DNA of 64,000 nucleotides from assembly GCA_963921275.4 (NCBI GenBank), contig OZ001293.3:3488001-3552000 (forward strand). The letters are read 5' to 3'. The notes beneath the pieces were generated by a model. That model worked only from the letters and a program-made list of their open reading frames with translations, was not told the origin of the DNA and searched no databases. This DNA comes from an uncultured Hormoscilla sp. (lineage in GTDB: Bacteria > Cyanobacteriota > Cyanobacteriia > Cyanobacteriales > Desertifilaceae). The translations under genes were made by a program, and so were the position numbers. This document shows positions 20,673-60,880 of this stretch, in pieces. Every line of letters begins with the position of its first letter. Position 1 is the first letter of the stretch.

Positions 20673-21429
20673 GTAACGAGGGTGCGCCAGATCCTGGCTA
20701 ACCTATTGGACAATGCGGTTAAATTCACGAATCAAGGGGAAGTGGTGGTCTCAGTCACAGCTGGCCTCCGAGACAACAACTCCGGCGGGCAGTCAAACCA
20801 GGAAGACCAGAAATATGAGGTCCATTTTACGGTCAAAGACACGGGCATTGAAATTCCAGAAAGCTGCTATCATCTGCTGTTCCAGTCTTTTTACCAGGTA
20901 GATAGCTCGACGACGCGCCCATACCCAGGCATGGGTTTGGGATTAGCGATCGCCAGACCTCTGGTGGAAATGATGGGCGGGAATATCTGGGTGGATAGCA
21001 ACGAGGGCGAAGGATCGACATTTTATTTCACGATTGTTGCCCCTGTTGCTGCTAGAACTGTCCGGATAGATCTTGACCAAGTGCAAGCCCAGCTGAGTGG
21101 CAAGCATCTGCTGATTGTAGAAAAAAATGCCACCAACAGACATATTCTCAGACAACAAACGCTCAAATGAGGCATGGTTCCCCAAGATGTCGCTACTAGC
21201 GAGCTGGCACTGGATTTGATTCGTCAAGATGCTCATTTCGACCTGGCGATTGTGGATATGCAGATGCTAGAAAATGCAGATGGCTCCCTGGTAGAGGAAA
21301 TTCGCAAGTATCGCGACCCGAGAACTCTACCCGTGGTGATGCTGACGGACATCGGTCATCAGTCGATCGAGCAAATGCCAGGGAATGTTGTTGCTTGCCT
21401 GACTAAACCGATCAAACCCTATGGGCTCT

Positions 21430-22300
21430 GTGCGATTCGTTCTAGCCTAACGTGGTCAAACACGGAACGCTAGCCCGGTTTCATTAGCCGGGAACTCTGA
21501 CCGCATGGGGGTTAAATTCCCCTCCCCCCAGGTACGGGGGTGACACCGGTCCTCGGTGCTACGAAGCGACATCATCGTGGTGCTAAGCGAGGACTCAAAT
21601 GTAGGATAACTGGCAGCCTAAGCCGGTGACGCCGCTAGGAAAGATATCCAAGGTTAGAGCAGGCAAACATGTGCAAGCCTCGTTATAAGGAACCAGCGAA
21701 ATAAGGCTATATGCGCTGGCCTAAAAAGGAAATGGTAGCTAGTATTAGTTTTAGACTCTGGCTAATATAGTACTCAAATAGCTCCCGGGGTATAGTGTGG
21801 ACCTAAAGGTATCGCGAAATGTTGTTAGGGAACGAAGTAACCTCTCGTGTGCTGTCCATCAGGACAAGTTAGATGTTAAGCGCAAGCCACGGGGGGAGGG
21901 ATGGCCCAAGAAGCGAATGCCCGGGGTAATTCCTGGGATAACATCTACAGTAATGTAGATGATGCTGGGTAGCCAGCGCTGACGTGGGTCGGTGATACTA
22001 GGAAGCTGCTGGAATGAGTAATCCTAAAAAGCCACGGAACTAATCCGAAACGCAAGTGGAGGATAAGGTATGGATAACTGGTAAAACTGACTTGAAAATG
22101 GTGATACTAACGGTTATCAGAACAACCACTCGCTAAACCAGGAAAGGGAAGAAAAGACAGGCGGCAAGGGCTAACGGAAGTAATTCCTATTAAGTCTACC
22201 TATGAAAAGGGCCTAGTACCCAGTAGCCGGATGCGGTGAAAATCGCAAGTCCGGTTCCGAAAGGGAGGGTCGGGAAGCGATTCCCGGCTCGACCCCATCC
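21430..22300 (+). mobile_element. ORF-less group II intron 3 (871 nt), near-identical to intron 1
   Basis: GTGCGATTCG start, intact DV/DVI, ends CGACCCCATCC; removal gives KPIKPYGLYNTLMNIF with a split T|AC codon. Confidence 0.95.
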
Positions 22301-23203
22301 ACAATACCCTGATGAATATTTTTGCCCACACGGGATTCACCAAAACCACTAACGATCTAACTGCCGAAAGCTGGCAGATGCCGCAGTTAACGGACTTGGC
22401 GAAGAGGAACCCCCTACGAATTCTGGTGGCAGAAGATAACGCAGTCGGTCAAAAAGTGATCTTGCGGATCCTCGATCGCTTGGGTTATAGCGCTGATGTA
22501 GTCAGCACCGGTGTAGAGGTGTTGTCAGCGTTGTATCAGAAATCCTACGATTTGATCCTGATGGATATCCAAATGCCAGAAATGGATGGTCTGACAGCGA
22601 CGAAATACATTTGCCAGCAATGGCAGCTTCCTATGCGTCCCCGGATTGTGGCCATGACTGCGGGGGCGATGCCAAATGAACGTCAGAAATGCCTGGATGG
22701 GATGGAAGATTACATCAGTAAACCAATCAAGGCGGAAGCTTTGCAGTCGGTGCTGAAACGGTGCTTCAAGGAAGTACAAAGTCCCTCCTCAGACCAGACA
22801 GGATCTCGGGATGGGGCTGTGCCGCAGCAGGAAGTTATGATACAGGAGTTATCAATGGATTTGGTTGACATGAAAGCGATCGCCCAGTTAGCCGCACAGA
22901 TGCAGATAGACATAAATTCAGATATGCTGTATGAGATAATTTACGATTTTATTTGTGATACGCCACCGATGTTTGGGACTATGCGCTCGGCGATCGCCTC
23001 GGGGGACTCTCGGACGTTGCAGCGGATAGCCCACAATCTCAAGAGTAATTGTCGCACTTTTAGCATAGGTCGCATGAGCGAGCTATCCTTGTCTTTAGAA
23101 AAAACAGCTACTTCCGAATCTCCTGAATACCATAAACAAATTGTAGCTCAATTAGAAGCTGAATTTGTCCGCGTCCAGCAGTTTTGGCAAGACAGTAAGT
23201 GGG

Positions 23204-24169
23204 CAGGGTAAGCGCAAGAATCATGCTTGGGGCATATATTATCAACTATCATGAGAATGATTGCTTTCTGGTAGTGATAAACATGTAGTGATGGCACAAC
23301 TAACCCGACAAGCATTTGTTGTAATCATGCACAAAATACCAAATCGCGTGATTTTCTTCTTAGAAAATGATAATGTTTTCCGAACCAAGCTACTAATTTT
23401 TTGTCTCGTTGTTTAACCTTTCAATATGATTAGTTTTTCCAGTTTCTTTACCTACCGCAATAGTAACGCTTTTTCGGTATTGTTATATGCTTCCCAAAAA
23501 GTAAAAAACCGCGTCGATAAACAGGAGGTAAATATTTCCACAATTTTTTTGCTGAGACTGCTATCGCTCAACTCCTACAATTGTTTTTGTATCAAGTGCC
23601 AATGTTTGTTTCTTTATTCCCAAGACCACATTTCATCACAAGTCAATTTTCCTTTGGGCTTGTCTGAAACCTTTAGATCACGGCAGATTTTTTATTAACG
23701 TTTGTGAAACCTTTACTCGACGCTATTCTTTCAAGTAATAGCTCATCTATATTCTTTTTCTTTTCGGACGATACCGGCTGTCGGGTTTTCAATTTATTGC
23801 CTATTTTTACATATTTTTGCTTTTTATTATGAGTACTATCATTTTTTACTGTTCGCTCACAATTACAATAAGGGCAATTGGGTCGCGACGATGATGATGT
23901 GTTCATAAGTCTATACTCGCTTTTGACTAATAACATAAGAGCATTTTTCTGATGAGCTATACATGAGAATATTTTATCATTGCTATCAATTTGGCTAAGA
24001 TAAAGAGCTGTTATATCATTCCTAAGAAAAGTAAGGATTAATAGAGGGATGGAATGTTCTATCACTACATATTTATCACTACCTGCTTTCTTATTGCGAA
24101 TCGGGCACAGTACCCTGGCAATTTTCGTGGCTCCATACCACATGCACAATTTTTCTTGCGCTTGCCCTG
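23204..24169. mobile_element. MITE (~144 bp net) with 17-bp IRs and 10-bp target duplication, carrying a nested IS1 remnant
   Basis: CAGGGTAAGCGCAAGAA / TTCTTGCGCTTGCCCTG; AGTAAGTGGG on both flanks. Confidence 0.85.
23270..24083 (-). mobile_element. IS1-family remnant, copy 1
   Basis: IR GGTAGTGATAAA / TTTATCACTACC, 8-bp duplication TGCTTTCT; CPYC.C..TVKN InsA-like zinc ribbon. Confidence 0.85.
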
Positions 24170-28255: not shown

Positions 28256-30344
28256 GTGCTATGACCATTGGTAGTGATAAACATGTAATGATGGCACAAC
28301 TAACCCGACAAGCATTTGTTGTAATCATGCACAAAATACCAAATCGCGTGATTTTCTTCTTAGAGAATGATAATGTTTTCCGAACCAAGCGACTAATTCT
28401 TTGCCTCGTTGTTTAACCTTTCAATATGATTAGTTTTTCCAGTTTCTTTACCTACCGCAATAGTAACGCTTTTTCGGTATTGTTATATGCTTCCCAAAAA
28501 GTAAAAAACCTCGTCGATAAACAGGAAGTAAATATTTTCACAATTTTTTTGCAGAGACTGCGATCGCCCAACTCCTACAATTGTTTTTGTATCAAGTGCC
28601 AATGTTTGTTTTCTTTATTCCCAAGACCACATTTCATCACAAGTCAATTTTCCTTTGGGCTTGTCTGAAACCTTTAGATCACGGCAGATTTTTTATTAAC
28701 GTTTGTGAAACCTTTACTCGACGCGCAATACCTGCCTATTCTTTCAAGTAATAGCTCATCTATATTCTTTTTCTTTTCGGACGATACCGGCTGTCGGGTT
28801 TTTAATTTATTGCCGATTTTTTACATATTTTTGCTTTTTATTATGAGTACTACCATTTTTTACTGTTCGCTCACAATTACAATAAGGGCAATTGGGTCGC
28901 GACGATGATGATGTGTTCATAAGTCTATACTCGCTTTTGACTAATAACATAAGAGCATTTTTCTGATGAGCTATACATGAGAATATTTTATCATTGCTAT
29001 CAATTTGGCTAAGATAAAGAGCTGTTATATCATTCCTAAGAAAAGTAAGGATTAATACAGGGATGGAATGTTCTATCACTACATATTTTACCAATACCTG
29101 ACCATTTTTATTTGACGGATAGACATAAAATAGATAATATAGAGATTTGCCCCTCAAATGACTTGCCAGTCCCATGCCAAAAAAGAAGTACATCGTCACG
29201 CTCACTCCGTCGGAGCGTGACGCATTGTCCCAACTGACTCGTTCAGGTAAAGCAGCTGCCTATAAAGTTAATCATGCTCGGATCGCGGTTGTTAGCAGAT
29301 ATCAACCAAGACAACGGCGGTTGGACTGATTGCCAGATTAGCGAAGCCCTAGATATCAGTCAGGCCACCATTGAGCGGGTACGGCTTCGTGGAAGAAGGT
29401 GTGGAAGCCGCATTAAATCGCCAACCTCGTAGTCAGAACAAAAAGCGTCGCTTGGATGGAGAAAAAGAAGCTCACCTCCGGAGCTTTGGCCTGTTCATCT
29501 CCCCAGAGGGTCATGCAGGCTGGACTATAAGATTGTTAGCCGATAAACTGGTGGAATTAGAGTTAGTTGAATCTATTTCCCCTGAGACAGTGCGACAGAC
29601 ATTAAAAAAAAACGCTCTTAAGCCTTGGCTCAATAAGTCATGGGTGATTCCACCAGAAGTAAATGCGGAGTTTGTTTGTCAGATGGAGATGTGCTTGATG
29701 TCTACACTCGTCCCTACGACCCTGACTATCCTGTAATTTGCGGGAGATGAAACAACTAAGCAATTAGTTTTTGAAATCAAACAGCCTCTGCCACCAGACA
29801 AGAGCCAATATAACCGAAAAACTCCTGGTCAGATAGAGCGATATGACTAGGAGTACAAACGTGAAGGTGTTTGCAATTTGTTCATGGTTTTTGAGCCTTT
29901 TGCGGGTCAAGGTCATGTTACGGTTACAGACCAACGTACAGCTATTGCGGCCCGCCCATATTATGCAGAATGTAGTAGATGTTTTCTATCCTGATGCTGT
30001 CAAAATTATTGTTATTCAAGATAACCTTAACACTCATACGCCCGCTTCTCTTTACAAGGCTTTTAAGCCAGCTGAAGCTAAACGCATTCTGGAAAAGTTA
30101 GAGTTTCACTATACCCCCAAGCATGGCAGTTGGCTGAATATGGCTGAAATTGAGTGAGCGTGTTTTAGCGAGGCAATGCTTAGATTGTCGAATTCCAGCC
30201 TCTGAAAACTTTACTTCAAGAGGTGGCCGCTTTTCAACAGCGCCGCAATCAGGATTCTGGTCCTGTTAACTGGCGTTTCACCACTGAAGATGCTCGGATC
30301 TTACTGTTACGGCTCTATCCATCAATATAAAGTGGTCAAAGCAC
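28256..30344 (+). mobile_element. IS630-family element (degraded) with nested IS1
   Basis: IR GTGCTATGACCA / TGGTCAAAGCAC, TA flanks; MPKKKYIVTL, WTIRLLAD, QDNLNTH, YTPKHGSWLNMAEIE. Confidence 0.9.
28270..29098 (-). mobile_element. IS1-family remnant, copy 2, inserted at the IS630 left end
   Basis: Highly similar to 23270-24083; 8-bp duplication TGACCATT. Confidence 0.85.
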
Positions 30345-30457
30345 TAGTGCATTGGGAAAGTCGCCCAGGTTTCCTCGAAGCATTCCAGTCTGTGCAAGCT
30401 AGCGATGGGGGTCATCACCTGGAACTGACCCTGATGGCCTCCGATGGGAAGCAGATT

Positions 30458-31359
30458 GTGCGATTCGTTCTAGTCTAACGTGGTCAAACACGGAACGCTA
30501 GCCTAAGAAATTAGGAACTCTGGTAATCATGGGGGTTGAATTCCCCTTCCCCAGGTACGGGGGTAACACCGGTCCTCAGTGCTGCGGAGTTACATCGCCG
30601 TGGTGTGGAGCGAGGACTTAAATGTAGGATAATTGGCAGCCTAAGCCGGTGATGCCACTAGGAAAGATGCTAATGGTTAGAACAGGCGAACCTATGTAAG
30701 CCTCGTTATCTCAAACCAGCGGAATAAGGCTTATACGCTGGCCCAAAAGGGAAATGGTAGTTAGTACTAGTTGTATTTTGTGGCTAATAACGTACTCGAA
30801 GAACTCCCGGGGTAAAGTAGGGGCCTAAAAGCATCGTGAAATGATACCAGGGAACGAAGTAACCTCTCGTGAGCTGTCCCCATTTGGACAAGTAAGATGT
30901 AAAGCGTAAGCCACGAAGAGGAGGGATGTCCTAAGAAGCCAACGCCCGGGGTAATACCTGTGGATATGCAGACGTAGGACGGATATGGTAAGAAGTCTTT
31001 GGGAAAAGTAGCCTTAATGTCGCAAAACTAGGGAGAAATTCCAAATAGTAGGAATGTTGGATTAAAATCTTAGCCAGGTAAAGTTCAGAGCCCCTACGAA
31101 GAGCGGAAAGCAGAATGGGGAAGATGTTAGTAAAGAGCAGTAAGTATGGTTTGCTGAACTATCCTCCGCGAACCTTCCGCAGCTCAGTACTTAAACGGTC
31201 CAATAGGATTGACCATAAGGGGTAAGGGACAACGGGGGTAACCCCCAGTAATCCTACTGATGACAACAGCTTACCAACCAGTAGCCGTGTGCGATGAAAG
31301 TCGCATGCACGGTTTCGCTCTTGGAGGGTTGGGGAGTGATTCCCAGCTCAACCCCGACC
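30458..31359 (+). mobile_element. ORF-less group II intron 4 (902 nt)
   Basis: GTGCGATTCG start, DV GTAGCCGTGTGCGATGAAAGTCGCATGCACGGTTTC, ends CTCAACCCCGACC; in-frame exon junction. Confidence 0.94.
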
Positions 31360-32914
31360 TTAGTAGAAGGAAGGTTAAGTTATCAAGTCCAAGCTGGTTG
31401 TGAACCAGAAATCTGGAGTCTCTGGCGCAACAATAGCGATCGCGATCGGACAAAAGACGGAGTTGCCAATGAGTCGGATGGTAACCGGTCACATCTTTAC
31501 GAAAGCGTATATCGCTCACAGCCTTTCCAGCAGATGATGTGGTCCCAGAGATTTTTGCATAATATCCTCAATGCCATTGCTGACCCAATTTTTGTCAAAG
31601 ACTCTCAACATCGGTTTGTGATTGTCAACAATGCCTTGTGTCGGTTTTTGGGGTACAGCAGGGAGGAACTAATTGGCCGGAGGATTATGAATTATTCCCC
31701 AAAGAGGAAGCGGATGTATTCTGGTCCAAAGATGAACTGGTTTTTACCACAGGCAGGGAAAACGAAAATGAGGAATCATTGACTGACGCTGAAAGTCAGA
31801 TTCATGTAATTTCTACGAAAAAATCTCTGTTTGATGATGGGGCGGGGAATAAAATGTTGGTGGCGGTAATCAGAGACCTAACCTTACGCCACCAGGCAGA
31901 AGAGGCGTTACGGAAAAGTGAGGCCCGCTATCGGTTGCTGGCAGAAAACTCAACGGACATGATTTCCAGACACTCGCCAGATATGAAATTTTTGTATGTT
32001 TCGCCCGCCTGCCAAACAATACTTGGATACTCTCCATCCGCACTGATGAGACGCTTCGCTTATGAGTTTTTTCACCCTGAAGATCGGGCGGGACTGGAAA
32101 AACATTATGCCAGGATCCTTGAGGCAGCCAAAAGCTCTAGTTTAACCTATCGGATGCGCTGCCTTGATGGCAGTTATATCTGGTTGGAAACCACCAGCAA
32201 GATTGTCGAACCCAGAAACAGGTGCAGTCCTCGAAATTGTCGCAGTTTCTTGGGAAGTTACAGAACGCAAGCAGGTAGAAGCAGCCTTGCGGGAAAGCGA
32301 GGAAAGATTCCGTCTGGTGTTTTCAGATGCAGCGATCGGGATAGCACTCTACGATCTGGATGGCAGGTTTATCGAAGTGAATCCAGCTTTCTCGGAGATC
32401 TTGGGATATACAGAGGAGCAACTGAAGCAACTAACCTTTAGGGATATCACCACTCCAGAAGATATGAAAAAAGAAATCCCATTAATCGAACAAGGGCGAG
32501 CGGGTGAAATCAGTAGCTATCATATCGAAAAGCGTTACATCAAGAGTAATGGTGAAATTGTCTGGGTGAATCTGACGGTAAGTATGCTGCGAGACGGAGA
32601 GGGTAAGTTACTATACAGATTGGGAATGATCGAAGATATCGGCGATCGCAAGCGGGCAGAAGCAGAAATACTAAAAGCCTTAGGGAGAGAAAAAGAACTG
32701 AGCGAAATGAAGTCTCGTTTTGTTTCCATAGTATCCCATGAATTCCGCACACCCCTAACCACCATTCAGTCGGCTGCTAATATCCTAGAGGAATTCCCCT
32801 GCACGGAAACAGAAAAAGAGGAATTGTTTGGTCAAATAAAAGAGGCCATTACCCAGATGGTTCGACTGTTAGAAGATGTGTTATTTATTGGTCGCGCCGA
32901 AGCGAGAAAAATTG

Positions 32915-34246: not shown

Positions 34247-34987
34247 TCAGCGGTTAATTAATGCAGGGAAGTTGTAAGCAATGCCTAAGATAATTCCTAC
34301 ATCGGTTGTCTCTTCCTTAAGGAAAGCAACATTAATTCTGGCGGTTGCAGTCAAGTCCTTCGAGACAGGATAATCAACACCACCAGAGATCAGGGGACCA
34401 CTATAGCCCTCATCAATTTCAAAGGCGACACCACCGCCAACGAAGGGGGCTAACACTACTGATTCAAATGGTTCCCGATCGATGGGAAAGTCATAAGCGA
34501 CAGAAAGCATTAAAACTATGCCATCGCCAAATGAACTAGCGGTGCGCAAAGACAGATTGTCGGTAAATCCAAGTTTGCCGACTGTAGCAAAGCCACTTTC
34601 CCCTAAAGCCGTGTCGCCACCTAAACCTATATCGGCACCAATTCCCAGGTAGGTGTCAGCAAGGGTGCGATCGGTTTGAGGGTCTCGACGCCTTCCCAGG
34701 TAGGTGTCAGCAAGGGTGCAATCGGTTTGAGGGTCTCGACGCCGTTGAGCGATGACCGCATTATTTTCCGATGTATTTTCAGATCGGGTTTGCTGACTGT
34801 CGCTAGTTGGGGGTTGAGCTATTAGCGCCTCAGCAGTGGTTAAAGCGCTACCTGGGAAGGAAACAGTTGTACTCAATGGTGGTAATGACTCGGAAGTCTG
34901 AGCTTGAGCGGATAAGCTATTAGCAGCAGTGGCGATCGCCATGCAACTGAGTAGGGAAGCTGTACGCCATAGGTTAATAGTACTCAC
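34247..34987 (-). CDS. Exported outer-membrane beta-barrel-like protein with 51-nt internal duplication
   Basis: Signal peptide ending AQA; RRRDPQTD(C/R)TLADTYLG twice; PFVGGGV and GIAYNF C-terminal strands. Confidence 0.7.
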   Translation of the reverse strand: MSTINLWRTASLLSCMAIATAANSLSAQAQTSESLPPLSTTVSFPGSALTTAEALIAQPPTSDSQQTRSENTSENNAVIAQRRRDPQTDCTLADTYLGRRRDPQTDRTLADTYLGIGADIGLGGDTALGESGFATVGKLGFTDNLSLRTASSFGDGIVLMLSVAYDFPIDREPFESVVLAPFVGGGVAFEIDEGYSGPLISGGVDYPVSKDLTATARINVAFLKEETTDVGIILGIAYNFPALINR

Positions 34988-35961
34988 AATTCACTCCTCG
35001 ATGATTGATTCAGGGTGCCCATCGCTTCTACCACTTGCCCAGAGATAAAAGGCAGGATGGCGGATGATTGACTTTGAGCTTTCCCCTCTGTAAACACTAC
35101 CAATAAATAGGGTTGCTTGTCTTTAATTTCTATGTAGGCGCAGTCATGGCGGACTTGGCTGTTACTGGCTTTTGGCACCAGTCTGCTGGGGCATGACCAA
35201 AGCCGGGCATCGGTGGGGAGTCCGCCGCCGAGGAAGCTGGTGTATGAATGGTTGGGGTCTGTTTCTAAATCATCTGGGTTGAGGGTCCGGTGAATTAGAT
35301 TCATCATGGCCTGGGTTGCCTGGGAGGATACGGCGACACCGCCTACTATACTATGGAGCAGGCGGGCGGTGGCATTGGTGGTGAGCATATTGCGATTTTC
35401 TTGTCTCGAGCCCAAAAAGGCCCGATCGCGTCCGTAGGCACCGTCACTCCAGGTTTTTTGATTGACGTTGATGCTCTCAAATTCTGGCCAACCGAGGGAT
35501 TGGAAGTAACGGTTGACGATATTGCGCTGGAACTTCCAGGTCTCAAAGGGTCCAGGGGGCAGTTCTGGACCGCTAGTAGTGCCAGTGAGGACATCTACCA
35601 CAAGACTGGTGGCGTCGTTGCTGTCTCGAACAATCATGTCACGAATGGCTCGTTCCAAGTCAGCTCCAGTTTCGATCATGTTTTTGTCTCGCCACTCATA
35701 GATAGCTACCAGATAAAATAGCTTGACCACATGGGCGGGGTAAATGCGTTCCACGCCACGATAGCTGAAACCTCGGACTTGGTGTCTCCAGAATTCGGCA
35801 GTAGAGAGGGCACCGCCAGTGTTGACGGGGAAAGGTGGATCGTAGAGGATCCAGGTAAGGGCAATTTGGTTGCGGGCTAGTCCTGAGAATTGTGCCCAGG
35901 TCTTCTCCAGGATGCGATCGCCCAATTTTTCTAGTTGTTCGTCTTTGCGGAAGAAAATCAT
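34984..35961 (-). CDS. Serine hydrolase, class A beta-lactamase-like
   Basis: YPAHVVKLFY (Ser of SxxK replaced by His), SNDAT, RHDCAYIE. Confidence 0.8.
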   Translation of the reverse strand: MIFFRKDEQLEKLGDRILEKTWAQFSGLARNQIALTWILYDPPFPVNTGGALSTAEFWRHQVRGFSYRGVERIYPAHVVKLFYLVAIYEWRDKNMIETGADLERAIRDMIVRDSNDATSLVVDVLTGTTSGPELPPGPFETWKFQRNIVNRYFQSLGWPEFESINVNQKTWSDGAYGRDRAFLGSRQENRNMLTTNATARLLHSIVGGVAVSSQATQAMMNLIHRTLNPDDLETDPNHSYTSFLGGGLPTDARLWSCPSRLVPKASNSQVRHDCAYIEIKDKQPYLLVVFTEGKAQSQSSAILPFISGQVVEAMGTLNQSSRSEL

Positions 35962-37613
35962 GGTTGAATTACTGCAAGCAAGCCGAGGCTCTGCTCAATC
36001 TACCACTGTTGAGTACAGTTGCCGCGTCAATCTGGATCTGTATGATGGGTCTGAATGTGCTAGTTTAGCAACCCAGGCTGCTGCGGGGCGTCAGTTGCGA
36101 GTGCTTTCGGTGCCACCAGGCCAGGAGGCTGTAGAAGTCTGCTTGTGCGAGGATGATTATCGCTGCTGGCTGTCAGGGCTAGATTTGCCGAAGCTGTCCT
36201 TAGCAGAAATGCCTTATCGGGCGATCGCCCTTTCGGACGCTGAGATTAAAGAACGCTTGCCAGGGGCGATCGCCTTTGCGCAAGAGGCCATGCAGCAGGT
36301 TAATTATTACCTTTGGGGCGGTACAGTTGGACCTAACTACGACTGTTCTGGTTTGATGCAGGCTGCTTTTTGCTCAGTAGGTATTTGGTTGCCTAGAGAT
36401 TCTTATCAGCAGGAGGCGTTTGTGCAGGAAATCCCAATAGTAAAATTACAACCAGGAGACCTAATTTTCTTTGGTTCGGCAGAGAAGGTTAACCACGTGG
36501 GACTATATTTAGGTGGTGCGATTCGTTCAGGCGTAAACTGGCGACGGTGAAGTCTGGTCTGGTTTCATTTGCCGGATAACTCTGGTTATCATGGGGGTTA
36601 AATTCCCTCTCCCCAGGTGTGGGGGTAACACCGGTCCTTAGTGCTGCGGGGTCACATCGCCGTGGTGCGGAGCTAGGACTTAAATGTAGGATAGCTGGCA
36701 GCCTAACCCAGTGACGCCGCTAGGAAAGATGCTCATGGTTAGAACAAGCGAACCTGTTAAAGCCTCGTTACATAGAACCAGCGGAATAAGGCTTATACGC
36801 TGGCCCAAAAGGGAAAATGGTAGTTAGTGTTGGTAGTCATCTATTGCCAGCATCGCACCCAAAGAACTCCCGGGGTATAGCAGGGGCCTACAAGCATCGA
36901 GAAATGATACCAGGGAACGAAGTAACCTCACGTGAGCTGTCCCCATTTGGACCAGTTAGATGTAAAGCGCAAGCCGCGAAGAGGAAGGATGTTCTAAGAA
37001 GCCAACGCCTGGGGTAATGCCTGGGATATGCAGACGTAGGACGGATATGGTAAGAAGCCTTTGGTGAAAGTAGCCCTAACACGTCGCAAAACTTAGGAGA
37101 AATCCAAAAGTATGAATATGGACTAGAGTCTCAGCCGGGTAAAGTTCAGAGCCCCGATAAATTGCCAGAATGGGGAAATGTTAGAGAAGAGCGGCTAGAA
37201 TGGTTTGCTGAACTACCCTCCGCGATCGCGCAGCGTGCGCGCAGCGCATACCTTCCGGAGCTGAAATCATTAACGGTCCAATAGGATTGACCATAAGGGG
37301 TAAAATTACAGAGGGTAAGGGGAATACGGGGTAACCCAATAATCCTACTGATGACAACAGCTTACCAACCAGTAGCCGGATGCGGTGAAAGTCGCAAGTC
37401 CGGTTCCGAAAGGGAGGGTTGGGGAGTGATTCCCAGCTCGACCCCGACCAGGGCAAGTACATTCATAGTTCCGGCAAGGATATGGGCAGAAATGGCATCG
37501 GCATTGACCTCTTATCGGAGCAAGGAGATGCTATTAGTCAAGCTTATTATCGCCTGTTACGGGGTGCTGGGCGGGTGCTTACCAGTTATCTACCAGGGGA
37601 TGGTAATTGGTGA
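35960..37613 (+). CDS. NlpC/P60 (C40) peptidase, split by intron 5; join(35960..36515,37450..37613), 239 aa
   Basis: YLWGG..NYDCSG, LPRDSYQQ, PGDLIFF, NHVGLYLG-E-GKYIHSSG; spliced length 720 nt with no other lesion seen. Confidence 0.9.
36516..37449 (+). mobile_element. ORF-less group II intron 5 (934 nt), intact
   Basis: GTGCGATTCG start, DV GTAGCCGGATGCGGTGAAAGTCGCAAGTCCGGTTC, ends CTCGACCCCGACC. Confidence 0.95.
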
Positions 37614-38056
37614 GAGTCATCTCGTTCTCATTCTGTGTTATGATATTTCTCGTTACCAGGCGAGCGCCTGGTAACGCATATCCAGAGGCTCAGCCTCATT
37701 GTTAAGTATAACTAAGATGCCATGTCAAAGCAAGCCAGGAAAAGGAAAAAATTAACGAGCTGTTACGCCGGATTTTATCGAAAAAAATAAATCCCGACTA
37801 TCGGCGAAGGGATGAAATAATATTTGGGGAAGCGTAAAAGCGATCAGCGTGGGTATTTCCTCGAAAATTTCAGGATTTGATCATAGAAAAATTAGAACAT
37901 CTGTTGGCAGAGTATTTTGCCGCTCCAGAGGATTTTTTCAGAGATTCTCCGACAATCTAGGAATTCTATGACTTTGCCGCGATTTGTGCCAAAAAGTGAT
38001 TCAATACCCAATTTATGGGGTTTGTTACCTATCTGACTTATAATTAGCGGGTATAT

Positions 38057-38765
38057 ATAGCATTTCTCAAAAACATGAGGTACGAGAGTCAAGAATATAT
38101 GGAGGAGAAAGCCATGAAACCCTATTCAGTATATCTACAAAAATCGGTCTATAAAAATGATAATATATCACAAAGAAAACTGGCGAGCATATTTAGGGTA
38201 GCTCGCCAGTTTTGTTACCAAAATCATCCAGCAGGATCGGCGGCAATTTGTTACCTAAGAAAAGTCCTGATCGTCCACGAAAACTTAAGGATGAAGAACT
38301 GGCAATTATTCATAATTTAGTAAAGAAAAATAATGACTGGACCTTAGAAGAATATCAATCTAGTCTTGAAAAAGAGACCGGTGGTCAGCCGTTCGACAAT
38401 AGATAGGATGATAAAGAAGTTGGGATTTACCGTCAAAAAAAAGCGTTACATCCAACAGAGAAAAGAAGTGATAGAGTCCAAAAATTAAGGGTAGACTACT
38501 GGAAAGAAATAGAAGGAATAGACCCTTTTGACTTAATCTTCTTGGACGAATCCGGTGTTAACCTGGGGTTAACACGCATTTATGGTCGCATGTGGTCAAA
38601 GAGCCCATGGAAGTAAGCCAAGTAAGCGAAGAAAAACGTTTCGATAGTCGGAGCATCTTAAGGGAGTAGTGAATTCATTCAAGATTTTAGGTTCTTATGA
38701 TAGCTTAACTTTTGAAGCTTTTATAGTTAGACATTTAGTTCCTCGTTTATGGAAAGGAGCCTGCT
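38057..38765 (+). mobile_element. IS630-family remnant
   Basis: MKPYSV.., NDWTLEEY, FLDESGVNL fragments in broken frames; left end TATAGCATTTCTCA shared with 60991. Confidence 0.75.
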
Positions 38766-38789
38766 CATGGACTGCTTACCCAACTTAGG

Positions 38790-39370
38790 AAACTTTTGTG
38801 GAGTTCTTCGGGTTCGAGCAATGCAAATACCCGACCGAAGGTATCGTGGGATGGTATACCATGGTTTATACGATCTCAACTACAAGGAGGGCTTGATACA
38901 GATTGGGACATCTCATGACACTTGTGAAGTGACTCAATTAGCTATTGGTGGCTCACTTACGGCTCTATACTGTATCCATTGGCAAGCTCAATTTTATTGT
39001 TATGTGATGGCGGTGGTAGTAACAGCTCCCGCTCTTACCTGTTTAAGGAAAATCTGCAAAAGCTTAGCAACAAGCTAGGCATTGAAATTCGGATGGCTCA
39101 TTATTCCCCCTATACCTCTGAGTATAATCCCATTGAACATCGGTTGTTTCCCCATGTCGAACATGTGAGGGGGTAATATTCGACAAGGTGGAAACCGTCA
39201 AAAATTTGATAGCCACAAGGACAACAAAGACAGGATTAAAGGTATTTACAACCGTAATTGATAAGGTTTATCAAACAGGAGTGAAAGTTGGCTCAAGTTT
39301 TAAGGAAAATATGCGTCTTTGACAATATTCTCCCACAATGGAACTATACAGCCAAGCCACAACCGATGTA
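38790..39370 (+). mobile_element. ISAzo13-family transposase remnant
   Basis: IGTSHDT, LLCDGGGSNSSR, AHYSPYTSEYNPIEHRLF. Confidence 0.8.
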
Positions 39371-60799: not shown

Positions 60800-60880
60800 G
60801 TGCGATTCGTTTAGTGTAAACCACCGATGAAAACCAAGTGGGGACCACTAGCTAGGTTTCATTAGCCTAGACAACTTACA
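60800..60880 (+). mobile_element. 5' fragment of a sixth group II intron
   Basis: GTGCGATTCGTTTAGTGTAAAC...GGTTTCATTAGCC resembles the 5' ends of introns 2/3/5; no DV seen downstream. Confidence 0.6.

Follow-up and report, generated by a model that had tools for sequence, protein, structure and literature searches.

How can a peptidase gene that is cut in two by a mobile ribozyme still give a complete enzyme? The question is raised by a stretch of 64,000 nt (the window; positions 3,488,001 to 3,552,000 of contig OZ001293.3, whose own numbering from 1 is used below) from the cyanobacterial genome (7.03 Mb, 47% G + C) of an uncultured Hormoscilla sp., in which a gene for an SH3b + NlpC/P60 peptidase is split by a group II intron that has no open reading frame (ORF) of its own. 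The explanation that we consider likely overall is a recent insertion into the sense strand, where splicing restores an enzyme of 239 aa with the help of a maturase acting in trans. The parts of the split gene are as follows.

35960..36515, + strand: exon 1 of the SH3b + NlpC/P60 peptidase gene, codons 1-185 and the first base of codon 186
36344-36346, + strand: catalytic Cys129, in exon 1
36494-36496, + strand: catalytic His179, in exon 1
36516..37449, + strand: ORF-less group II intron of 934 nt, starting with GUGCG and ending with GACC
36548..36550, + strand: TGA that ends translation of the unspliced RNA, 11 codons past 36515 (ORF 35870..36550)
37450..37613, + strand: exon 2, which begins with the second and third bases of codon 186 (Glu) and continues through codons 187-239 to the TGA stop
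37464-37466, + strand: third catalytic residue His191, in exon 2

The two exons together make 720 nt (239 aa and a stop), and the gene is present as a single copy, being the sole PF00877 match in the genome. Exon 1 matched PF18348 (SH3_16; 3.2e-14, 52.9 bits, residues 27-72), which represents the N-terminal SH3b domain, and NLPC_P60 (PF00877; 3.1e-22, 79 bits, profile positions 3-73 of 105). While exon 2 alone (53 aa) gave no match in Pfam, it was colinear with the C-termini of orthologues. The start, MVELLQ, is common to the same-genus orthologues, and the Cys-His-His triad of Cys129, His179, and His191 is kept in 12 of 12 aligned sequences. The best PDB match of exon 1 was 2hbw_A (1.4e-70, residues 12-185), which is AvPCP, a cyanobacterial gamma-D-Glu-DAP endopeptidase according to the part of the structural report used here (PMC2954226). 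The same part gives His291 and His303 as the triad histidines of YkfC, and the His-His spacing of 12 in our gene equals theirs (PMC2954226). The product is predicted to be an AvPCP-type gamma-D-Glu-diamino-acid endopeptidase with an SH3b domain; whereas the solved proteins of this type are encoded by uninterrupted genes, the gene here is split by an intron.

The limits of the intron were defined by its relatives. A blastn search of 36516-37449 against the genome returned 832 high-scoring segment pairs (HSPs), 44 of them full-length copies that have unrelated flanks and common ends, running from the first base of the query to the last and finishing with ...CGACCCCGACC or a close variant. With the intron as query, the 43 sister copies align from the first intron base, GTGCGATTCGTT. 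Because 44 copies with unrelated flanks share both ends, the element corresponds to 36516-37449, and its DNA starts with GTGCG (36516-36520), a 5' GUGYG in the RNA, and ends with ...CGACCCCGACC. On the side of the host, the alignment with the peptidase family is lost after ...VNHVGLYLG at 36515, and the open frame resumes at 37450 with (E)GKYIHSSGKD...GNW followed by the stop. Removal of the intron gives the junction peptide VNHVGLYLG-E-GKYIHSSG (also given as VNHVGLYLGEGK), in which the split codon G|AG supplies Glu186, the residue carried by the four same-genus orthologues, which read LYLGEGKYIHSSG. The intron is located six codons after catalytic His179 and five codons before His191.

The joined product was colinear over its full length with the orthologues at all 11 relatives' loci examined and gap-free against three of the four intronless same-genus orthologues. 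A single HSP also spanned the junction (residues 175-200) at 80 of 80 further cyanobacterial loci, the closest three of which coincide with three of the 11 relatives' loci. Translation of the unspliced RNA would give a product of 196 aa that is devoid of His191, and the full-length enzyme is obtainable from spliced RNA only. An earlier note on this DNA, made from its letters and reading frames, had claimed that the exons total 720 nt (239 aa) with no other lesion, that the intron lies between the catalytic His and the third-position His, that unspliced RNA stops at 36550, and that the peptidase can be made only by splicing. All of this was borne out by the colinear joined frame, by the position between His179 and His191, by the TGA at which read-through ends, and by the primary reading frame, which yields just 196 aa. 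Annotation pipelines will call a truncated protein of 196-226 aa that misses the third catalytic histidine, where the correct product has 239 aa and needs splicing.

Is the ribozyme complete enough to splice? The elements that would take part are listed below.

36503..36508, + strand: intron-binding site 2 (IBS2, CUAUAU), 5/6 bases of which pair with exon-binding site 2, with one mismatch
36510..36515, + strand: intron-binding site 1 (IBS1, UAGGUG), which pairs with exon-binding site 1 by five Watson-Crick pairs and one G-U pair
36770..36775, + strand: exon-binding site 2 (EBS2, ACAUAG), in an unpaired stretch of domain I
36838..36843, + strand: exon-binding site 1 (EBS1, CAUCUA), in a terminal loop of domain I
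37374..37405, + strand: domain V, with the AGC triad, a lower helix of 8 bp, an AA bulge, an upper helix of 5 bp, and a GAAA loop
37441, + strand: bulged adenosine of domain VI, the candidate branch point, 8 nt ahead of the last base of the intron

Domains V and VI matched Rfam RF00029 at 47.7 bits (gathering score, 40) over 37371-37448, which covers model positions 1-77 of 77, and all eight lower-helix pairs of domain V form. A37441 falls on the bulged A in the RF00029 consensus and may serve as the branch point. The group II intron 3' end is usually AY; here the final 'Au' of the model was aligned with AC at 37447-37448, and one more C precedes the splice site set by the reading frame and the 44 copies. 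In an RNAalifold consensus built from 16 representatives of the 44 full-length copies, 74 of 216 pairs showed a compensatory change on both sides, and the peptidase intron forms 215 of the pairs. The longest ORF inside the intron is 66 aa (none reaches 70 aa), and a tblastn search with 23 of the genome's frames for intron-encoded proteins (IEPs) detected no IEP remnant in the intron, nothing scoring better than E = 0.11. Because domain IV holds no IEP, the peptidase intron is regarded as an ORF-less derivative, as had been proposed.

The claim that domain V is intact was also supported, and this property sets the copy apart from its nearest target-site relatives: the seven other copies with the same EBS1 all have a domain V of the AAGCCCCA type. 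This type emerged from a census of 156 short copies paired by their end motifs, of which 105 have all eight lower-helix pairs. Five of the eight pairs form in 31 copies (5' strand AGCCGUGU, 3' strand UUCAGGUU), three or fewer in 15 (5' strand AAGCCCCA), and the upper helix is missing in five. Examples of a non-canonical domain V are found at C1:4184504-4185438 (AAGCCCCA type), at C1:529246-530172 (UUCAGGUU type), and, within the window, at 19737-20672. Two subfamilies with a non-canonical domain V have nevertheless spread to many sites with matching EBS and IBS sequences, and some such copies are inside intact-looking ORFs (chromate transporter, SpoIIE phosphatase). Either such a domain V is functional when assisted, or gene conversion carried the change from copy to copy once they were in place.

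The exon-binding sites were assigned by covariation. When the 44 copies were aligned, the EBS1 loop was seen to change together with the six bases that precede each copy, which defines four subfamilies.

Subfamily A: EBS1 loop CAUCUA, upstream flank (IBS1) UAGAUG-like
Subfamily B: EBS1 loop AUUUGC, upstream flank (IBS1) GYAAAU-like
Subfamily C: EBS1 loop CUGUAC, upstream flank (IBS1) GUACAG
Subfamily D: EBS1 loop UGCCUC, upstream flank (IBS1) GAGGCA or GAGGUA

For EBS2 (intron positions 255-260), covariation with bases -13 to -8 was found across these four subfamilies; two other EBS2 candidates, at intron positions 122 and 305, showed no covariation with the flanks and were dropped. The EBS1 pairing had been described as perfect. 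All six bases are indeed paired, but one pair is G-U; the target in the peptidase gene is imperfect as a homing site, though good as an ectopic one.

On this anatomy, a copy of the ORF-less family would have entered the sense strand of the only NlpC/P60 gene by reverse splicing and reverse transcription. For its removal, domain I would hold exon 1 through the EBS1-IBS1 and EBS2-IBS2 pairings, the bulged A37441 would attack the 5' splice site after G36515, and the freed exon 1 would then attack the 3' splice site after C37449, which would restore codon GAG (Glu186). Because the intron encodes no protein, splicing in the cell would most likely be assisted by a reverse transcriptase/maturase from an ORF-containing intron elsewhere in the genome. 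While the anatomy, the boundaries, the pairings, the restored frame, the single copy of the gene, and the recency of the insertion are demonstrated, splicing in vivo and its need for such a trans-acting maturase are inferred.

The indirect case for splicing of the peptidase intron is fairly strong, and two sister copies contribute to it. Outside intron positions 135-376, the peptidase intron is identical to copy c01, which interrupts the only G6PD gene in the genome, precisely at the boundary of Pfam G6PD_C positions 137 and 138. Copy c14, which is 88% identical to the peptidase intron and has the same domain V helices and AA bulge, is inserted in a class II ribonucleotide reductase (RNR) gene whose parts are open for 112 and 1070 codons. 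This is the only RNR gene that was detected in the whole genome (one match for PF17975 and none for PF02867, PF00268, or PF13597). Because the organism cannot live without ribonucleotide reductase and its only detected RNR gene is split, c14 must be removed in vivo.

Split genes with open exons are also more frequent than in a control, since 38 of the 156 copies leave at least 50 open codons on both sides in the sense orientation, compared with 18 of 156 in the antisense orientation. Of the 18 non-redundant hosts with at least 100 codons on both sides, ten were examined; the remaining eight were three occurrences of one repeated mobile-element ORF and five others. Pfam families were matched by 19 of the 20 exon halves, and these families continue across the junction. 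The ten genes encode GOGAT, G6PD, a class III aminotransferase, a chromate transporter, a SpoIIE phosphatase, RNR, an alpha-2-macroglobulin, a ResIII helicase, a protein kinase, and a histidine kinase; the split GOGAT gene is one of two GOGAT genes. A conserved intron position was sought as a sign of long-term splicing, and comparison of the G6PD and RNR orthologues gave none that was usable. The G6PD gene was uninterrupted in all four same-genus genomes, and the RNR gene was uninterrupted at the c14 site in two of the four, with the interruption lying elsewhere in the remaining two. It seems that the RNR gene was struck by separate insertions in different species. One same-genus RNR (G002:C6:337474-339555) has a gap of ~1.17 kb after query residue 189, and another (G001:C57:17911-18813) has an open frame of only 440 aa.

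Candidates for the trans-acting maturase that the earlier note had envisaged are abundant. The genome contains 75 matches to the maturase domain GIIM, none of them within the window, and in 20 of 23 long IEP frames examined at least 520 aa follow the first Met. The 23 frames belong to several lineages (about six) at 66-100% identity, plus one outlier at about 41%, and the one frame that was tested for its domains (590 aa, L003) had RVT_N, RVT_1, GIIM, and HNH. An IEP-bearing intron that matches the peptidase intron over its full length was found neither by pairing of 5' and 3' end motifs nor by blast against 7-kb regions around 30 GIIM matches. A shorter ORF-less copy is present in a constant relative position just upstream of, or inside, several IEP introns (around C1:2409200, C1:1059481, and C1:4453641), a nested, twintron-like arrangement that recalls Thermosynechococcus elongatus.

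When did the intron arrive? Against its 18 closest copies, the peptidase intron has no private nucleotide state. It differs from c01 (C1:6446752-6447684) at 22 positions, all within intron positions 135-376 (window 36650-36891), and at every one of them its state is shared with other copies, including the EBS1 and EBS2 of subfamily A. The intron is thus a mosaic in which an exon-binding segment of subfamily A is set in a backbone like that of c01, which suggests that recombination or template switching makes new target specificities. The 95% upper bound of its age is 0.32% divergence, although gene conversion between copies could blur this estimate; the bound corresponds to at most 2.3 expected neutral changes in the 720-nt coding sequence and to ~6% of the time since the nearest species split, measured as half of the corresponding synonymous distance. 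Members of the intron superfamily are present in all four same-genus genomes, none of them above 85% identity, and no member was detected in the single next-genus genome that was examined; at the peptidase site, the intron was present in none of the four. Given the lack of private substitutions, the insertion is very recent.

This recency alters the meaning of the intact host gene. The earlier note had held that selection maintains splicing here, a view that we could not uphold, because an insertion without private substitutions is too young: an unbroken host gene and an intact domain V are expected from recency alone. The proposed comparison of nonsynonymous with synonymous substitution rates (dN/dS) against intronless orthologues did give pairwise values below 1 (0.27-0.47) without an excess in exon 2, and on the terminal branch of this genome's peptidase 13.5 nonsynonymous to 10.5 synonymous changes also placed dN/dS below 1 (P about 0.01-0.03). 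However, this branch consists mostly of time before the insertion, so its dN/dS cannot prove that splicing is selected.

The window contains other intron hosts. A gene for a hybrid histidine kinase/response regulator/Hpt protein (~18932-23208) carries two sense introns, 19737-20672 and 21430-22300, and an antisense intron (18046-18916) lies just upstream of it. Removal of both sense introns restores HATPase_c and Response_reg, and there remain a frameshift (near 19600-19640) as well as a stop codon in frame at 21168-21170; with these lesions the gene is a pseudogene. A further intron (30458-31359) is inserted in a short PAS fragment (30206-31779), probably a pseudogene as well. The statement that the other intron hosts are pseudogenes therefore applies to the hybrid kinase gene and probably to the PAS fragment, but not to the genome as a whole, where at least ten other hosts look intact.

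Several points weigh against the view that the peptidase intron is spliced with a maturase supplied in trans. With a mismatch in IBS2 and a G-U pair in IBS1, the exon is bound a little less tightly than it would be at a perfect homing site. Resemblance between the genome's ORF-containing introns and the peptidase intron is confined to ~125 nt of domain I, at 73-76% identity, and because the match is limited to this segment no cognate maturase can be named. With a non-canonical lower helix of domain V in 46 of 156 copies, many copies here may be dead. The insertion is so young that the intact gene says nothing about function. Lastly, because 6 of 40 relatives gave no match to the peptidase gene, the enzyme is probably dispensable and loss of its function tolerable.

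A rival reading is a nascent pseudogene, that is, an intron that recently landed in a dispensable gene and is spliced not at all or too little, with lesions not yet collected. The absence of private substitutions, the small number of neutral changes to be expected, the imperfect target site, the four same-genus genomes that lack the intron at this site, the relatives without a detected peptidase gene, and the fate of the neighboring hosts in the window are all in its favor. On the other hand, the ribozyme is structurally complete and was inserted in the sense strand of a single-copy gene, c01 in the only G6PD gene is identical to it outside the EBS segment, and its domain V helices are those of c14 in the only detected RNR gene, which must be spliced. 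We therefore consider a nascent pseudogene unlikely, and splicing of the peptidase intron with a maturase supplied in trans remains the reading that we judge probable.

Protein-independent self-splicing, in which the ribozyme would remove itself without any maturase, is improbable. Although all core RNA elements are present and domain IV holds no recognizable IEP-binding element or ORF remnant, it is rare for group II introns to splice by themselves at physiological salt. Moreover, an IEP was needed in the cyanobacterial precedents as far as the relevant parts of their reports go (PMC4649490, PMC2882425). A mixture of chromosome copies, in which a polyploid cell would keep intronless peptidase genes and make the enzyme independently of splicing, would suit a very young insertion, and polyploidy has been proposed, in the part of a 2022 survey drawn on here, as a reason that CL-type introns can spread in cyanobacteria (PMC8919778), but we regard it as very improbable, as the assembly consensus carries the intron and the contigs of runs X1 and X4 contain exon-intron junctions while no contig joins 36515 to 37450. 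Specifically, the X1 contigs cover both junctions and the X4 contigs cover the 3' junction, and those of runs X5 and X6 contain only short pieces and other copies; contigs drop rare variants, the runs may be the assembly's own source, and they are silent on expression. A search for sequencing runs listed six, none of them marked as RNA. One contig joint going back 1550, a unitig spanning from where the previous intron copy ends to where the peptidase intron starts, was set aside as a repeat artefact.

How unusual is this locus? Bacterial group II introns usually avoid conserved genes. In this genome, the intron family comprises 455 merged loci with a total of 346.6 kb (4.9% of the genome), and 290 of the loci are 800-1000 nt long (e.g., C1:5580677-5581511, C1:6446752-6447684, and C1:848632-849545). 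In the search with RF00029, 150 of 867 candidates were scored, and 148 of the 150 matches listed pass the gathering score. The largest count in the part of the 2022 survey considered here is 101 group II introns, in Arthrospira platensis (PMC8919778). No published account of Hormoscilla introns was found in the literature searched, and subscription journals or supplements may hold one. The peptidase intron is one recent case among hundreds in the genome, of a kind known from Trichodesmium and Thermosynechococcus, and the single gene is less notable than the bloom of ORF-less introns across the genome, with about 290 full-length copies.

In Trichodesmium, the portion of the report on which we rely describes 17 group II introns that splice in vivo, ten of them ORF-less and many in protein genes, with maturase help in trans shown in E. 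coli (PMC4649490). As in Trichodesmium erythraeum, the peptidase intron is ORF-less and lies in the sense strand of a conserved protein gene, its removal restores the frame exactly, and a dependence on maturases encoded elsewhere is deduced; splicing was documented in vivo there, whereas it is predicted from the DNA here (PMC4649490). The host gene (NlpC/P60) and the intron family also differ from what that portion describes, and the copy number is far higher here. In Thermosynechococcus, ORF-less introns are mobilized by the IEPs of other introns, TeI3 by the 'driver' IEPs of TeI4, as stated in the sections of the report cited here (PMC2882425). The TeI3 introns of T. elongatus resemble the present family in being compact and ORF-less, in their subfamilies with different EBS sequences, in their good but imperfect EBS/IBS sites, in the use of IEPs in trans, and in their nested, twintron-like insertions (PMC2882425). 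By the same sections, however, T. elongatus has 28 introns, few of them within genes, whereas at least ten conserved cellular genes are split here, and the TeI3 introns keep visible remnants of the ORF ends, none of which is detectable in the peptidase intron (PMC2882425).

A genome in which ORF-less copies split many single-copy genes would offer a natural system to study how common maturases serve many degenerate introns and how intron load grows under relaxed selection, and the peptidase intron is a clean and very young example with precisely defined pairings. We can tentatively go further: this may turn out to be the bacterial genome richest in introns so far, in a cell that relies on a common splicing machinery acting in trans, with ORF-less introns in single-copy housekeeping genes and the peptidase intron as the newest client. 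That intron looks like a fresh recombinant which joined a canonical core to the exon-binding sites of a subfamily that otherwise has a non-canonical domain V. If it exists, such a shared machinery would be a bacterial analogue of an early step on the way to splicing like that of organelles or the spliceosome.

Some minor features of the window can be added. At 60800 on the + strand there is a match to the intron 5'-end motif GTGCGATTCG, with no paired 3' end among the motifs searched. Scanned for promoters and terminators, 35500-37900 showed a single promoter-like site, which lies within the gene, and no terminators; shuffled sequences gave more, and the result is uninformative. The peptidase ORF is adjoined by a divergent ORF of 325 aa with a Beta-lactamase2 domain (34984-35961, - strand), and the start codons of the two overlap by 2 nt (CAT/ATG at 35959-35962), so that either the promoter of each gene lies inside the coding region of the other or one start was wrongly called. 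Downstream of the peptidase gene, at 38075-39320, short ORFs in several frames resemble, by eye only, broken pieces of a transposase.

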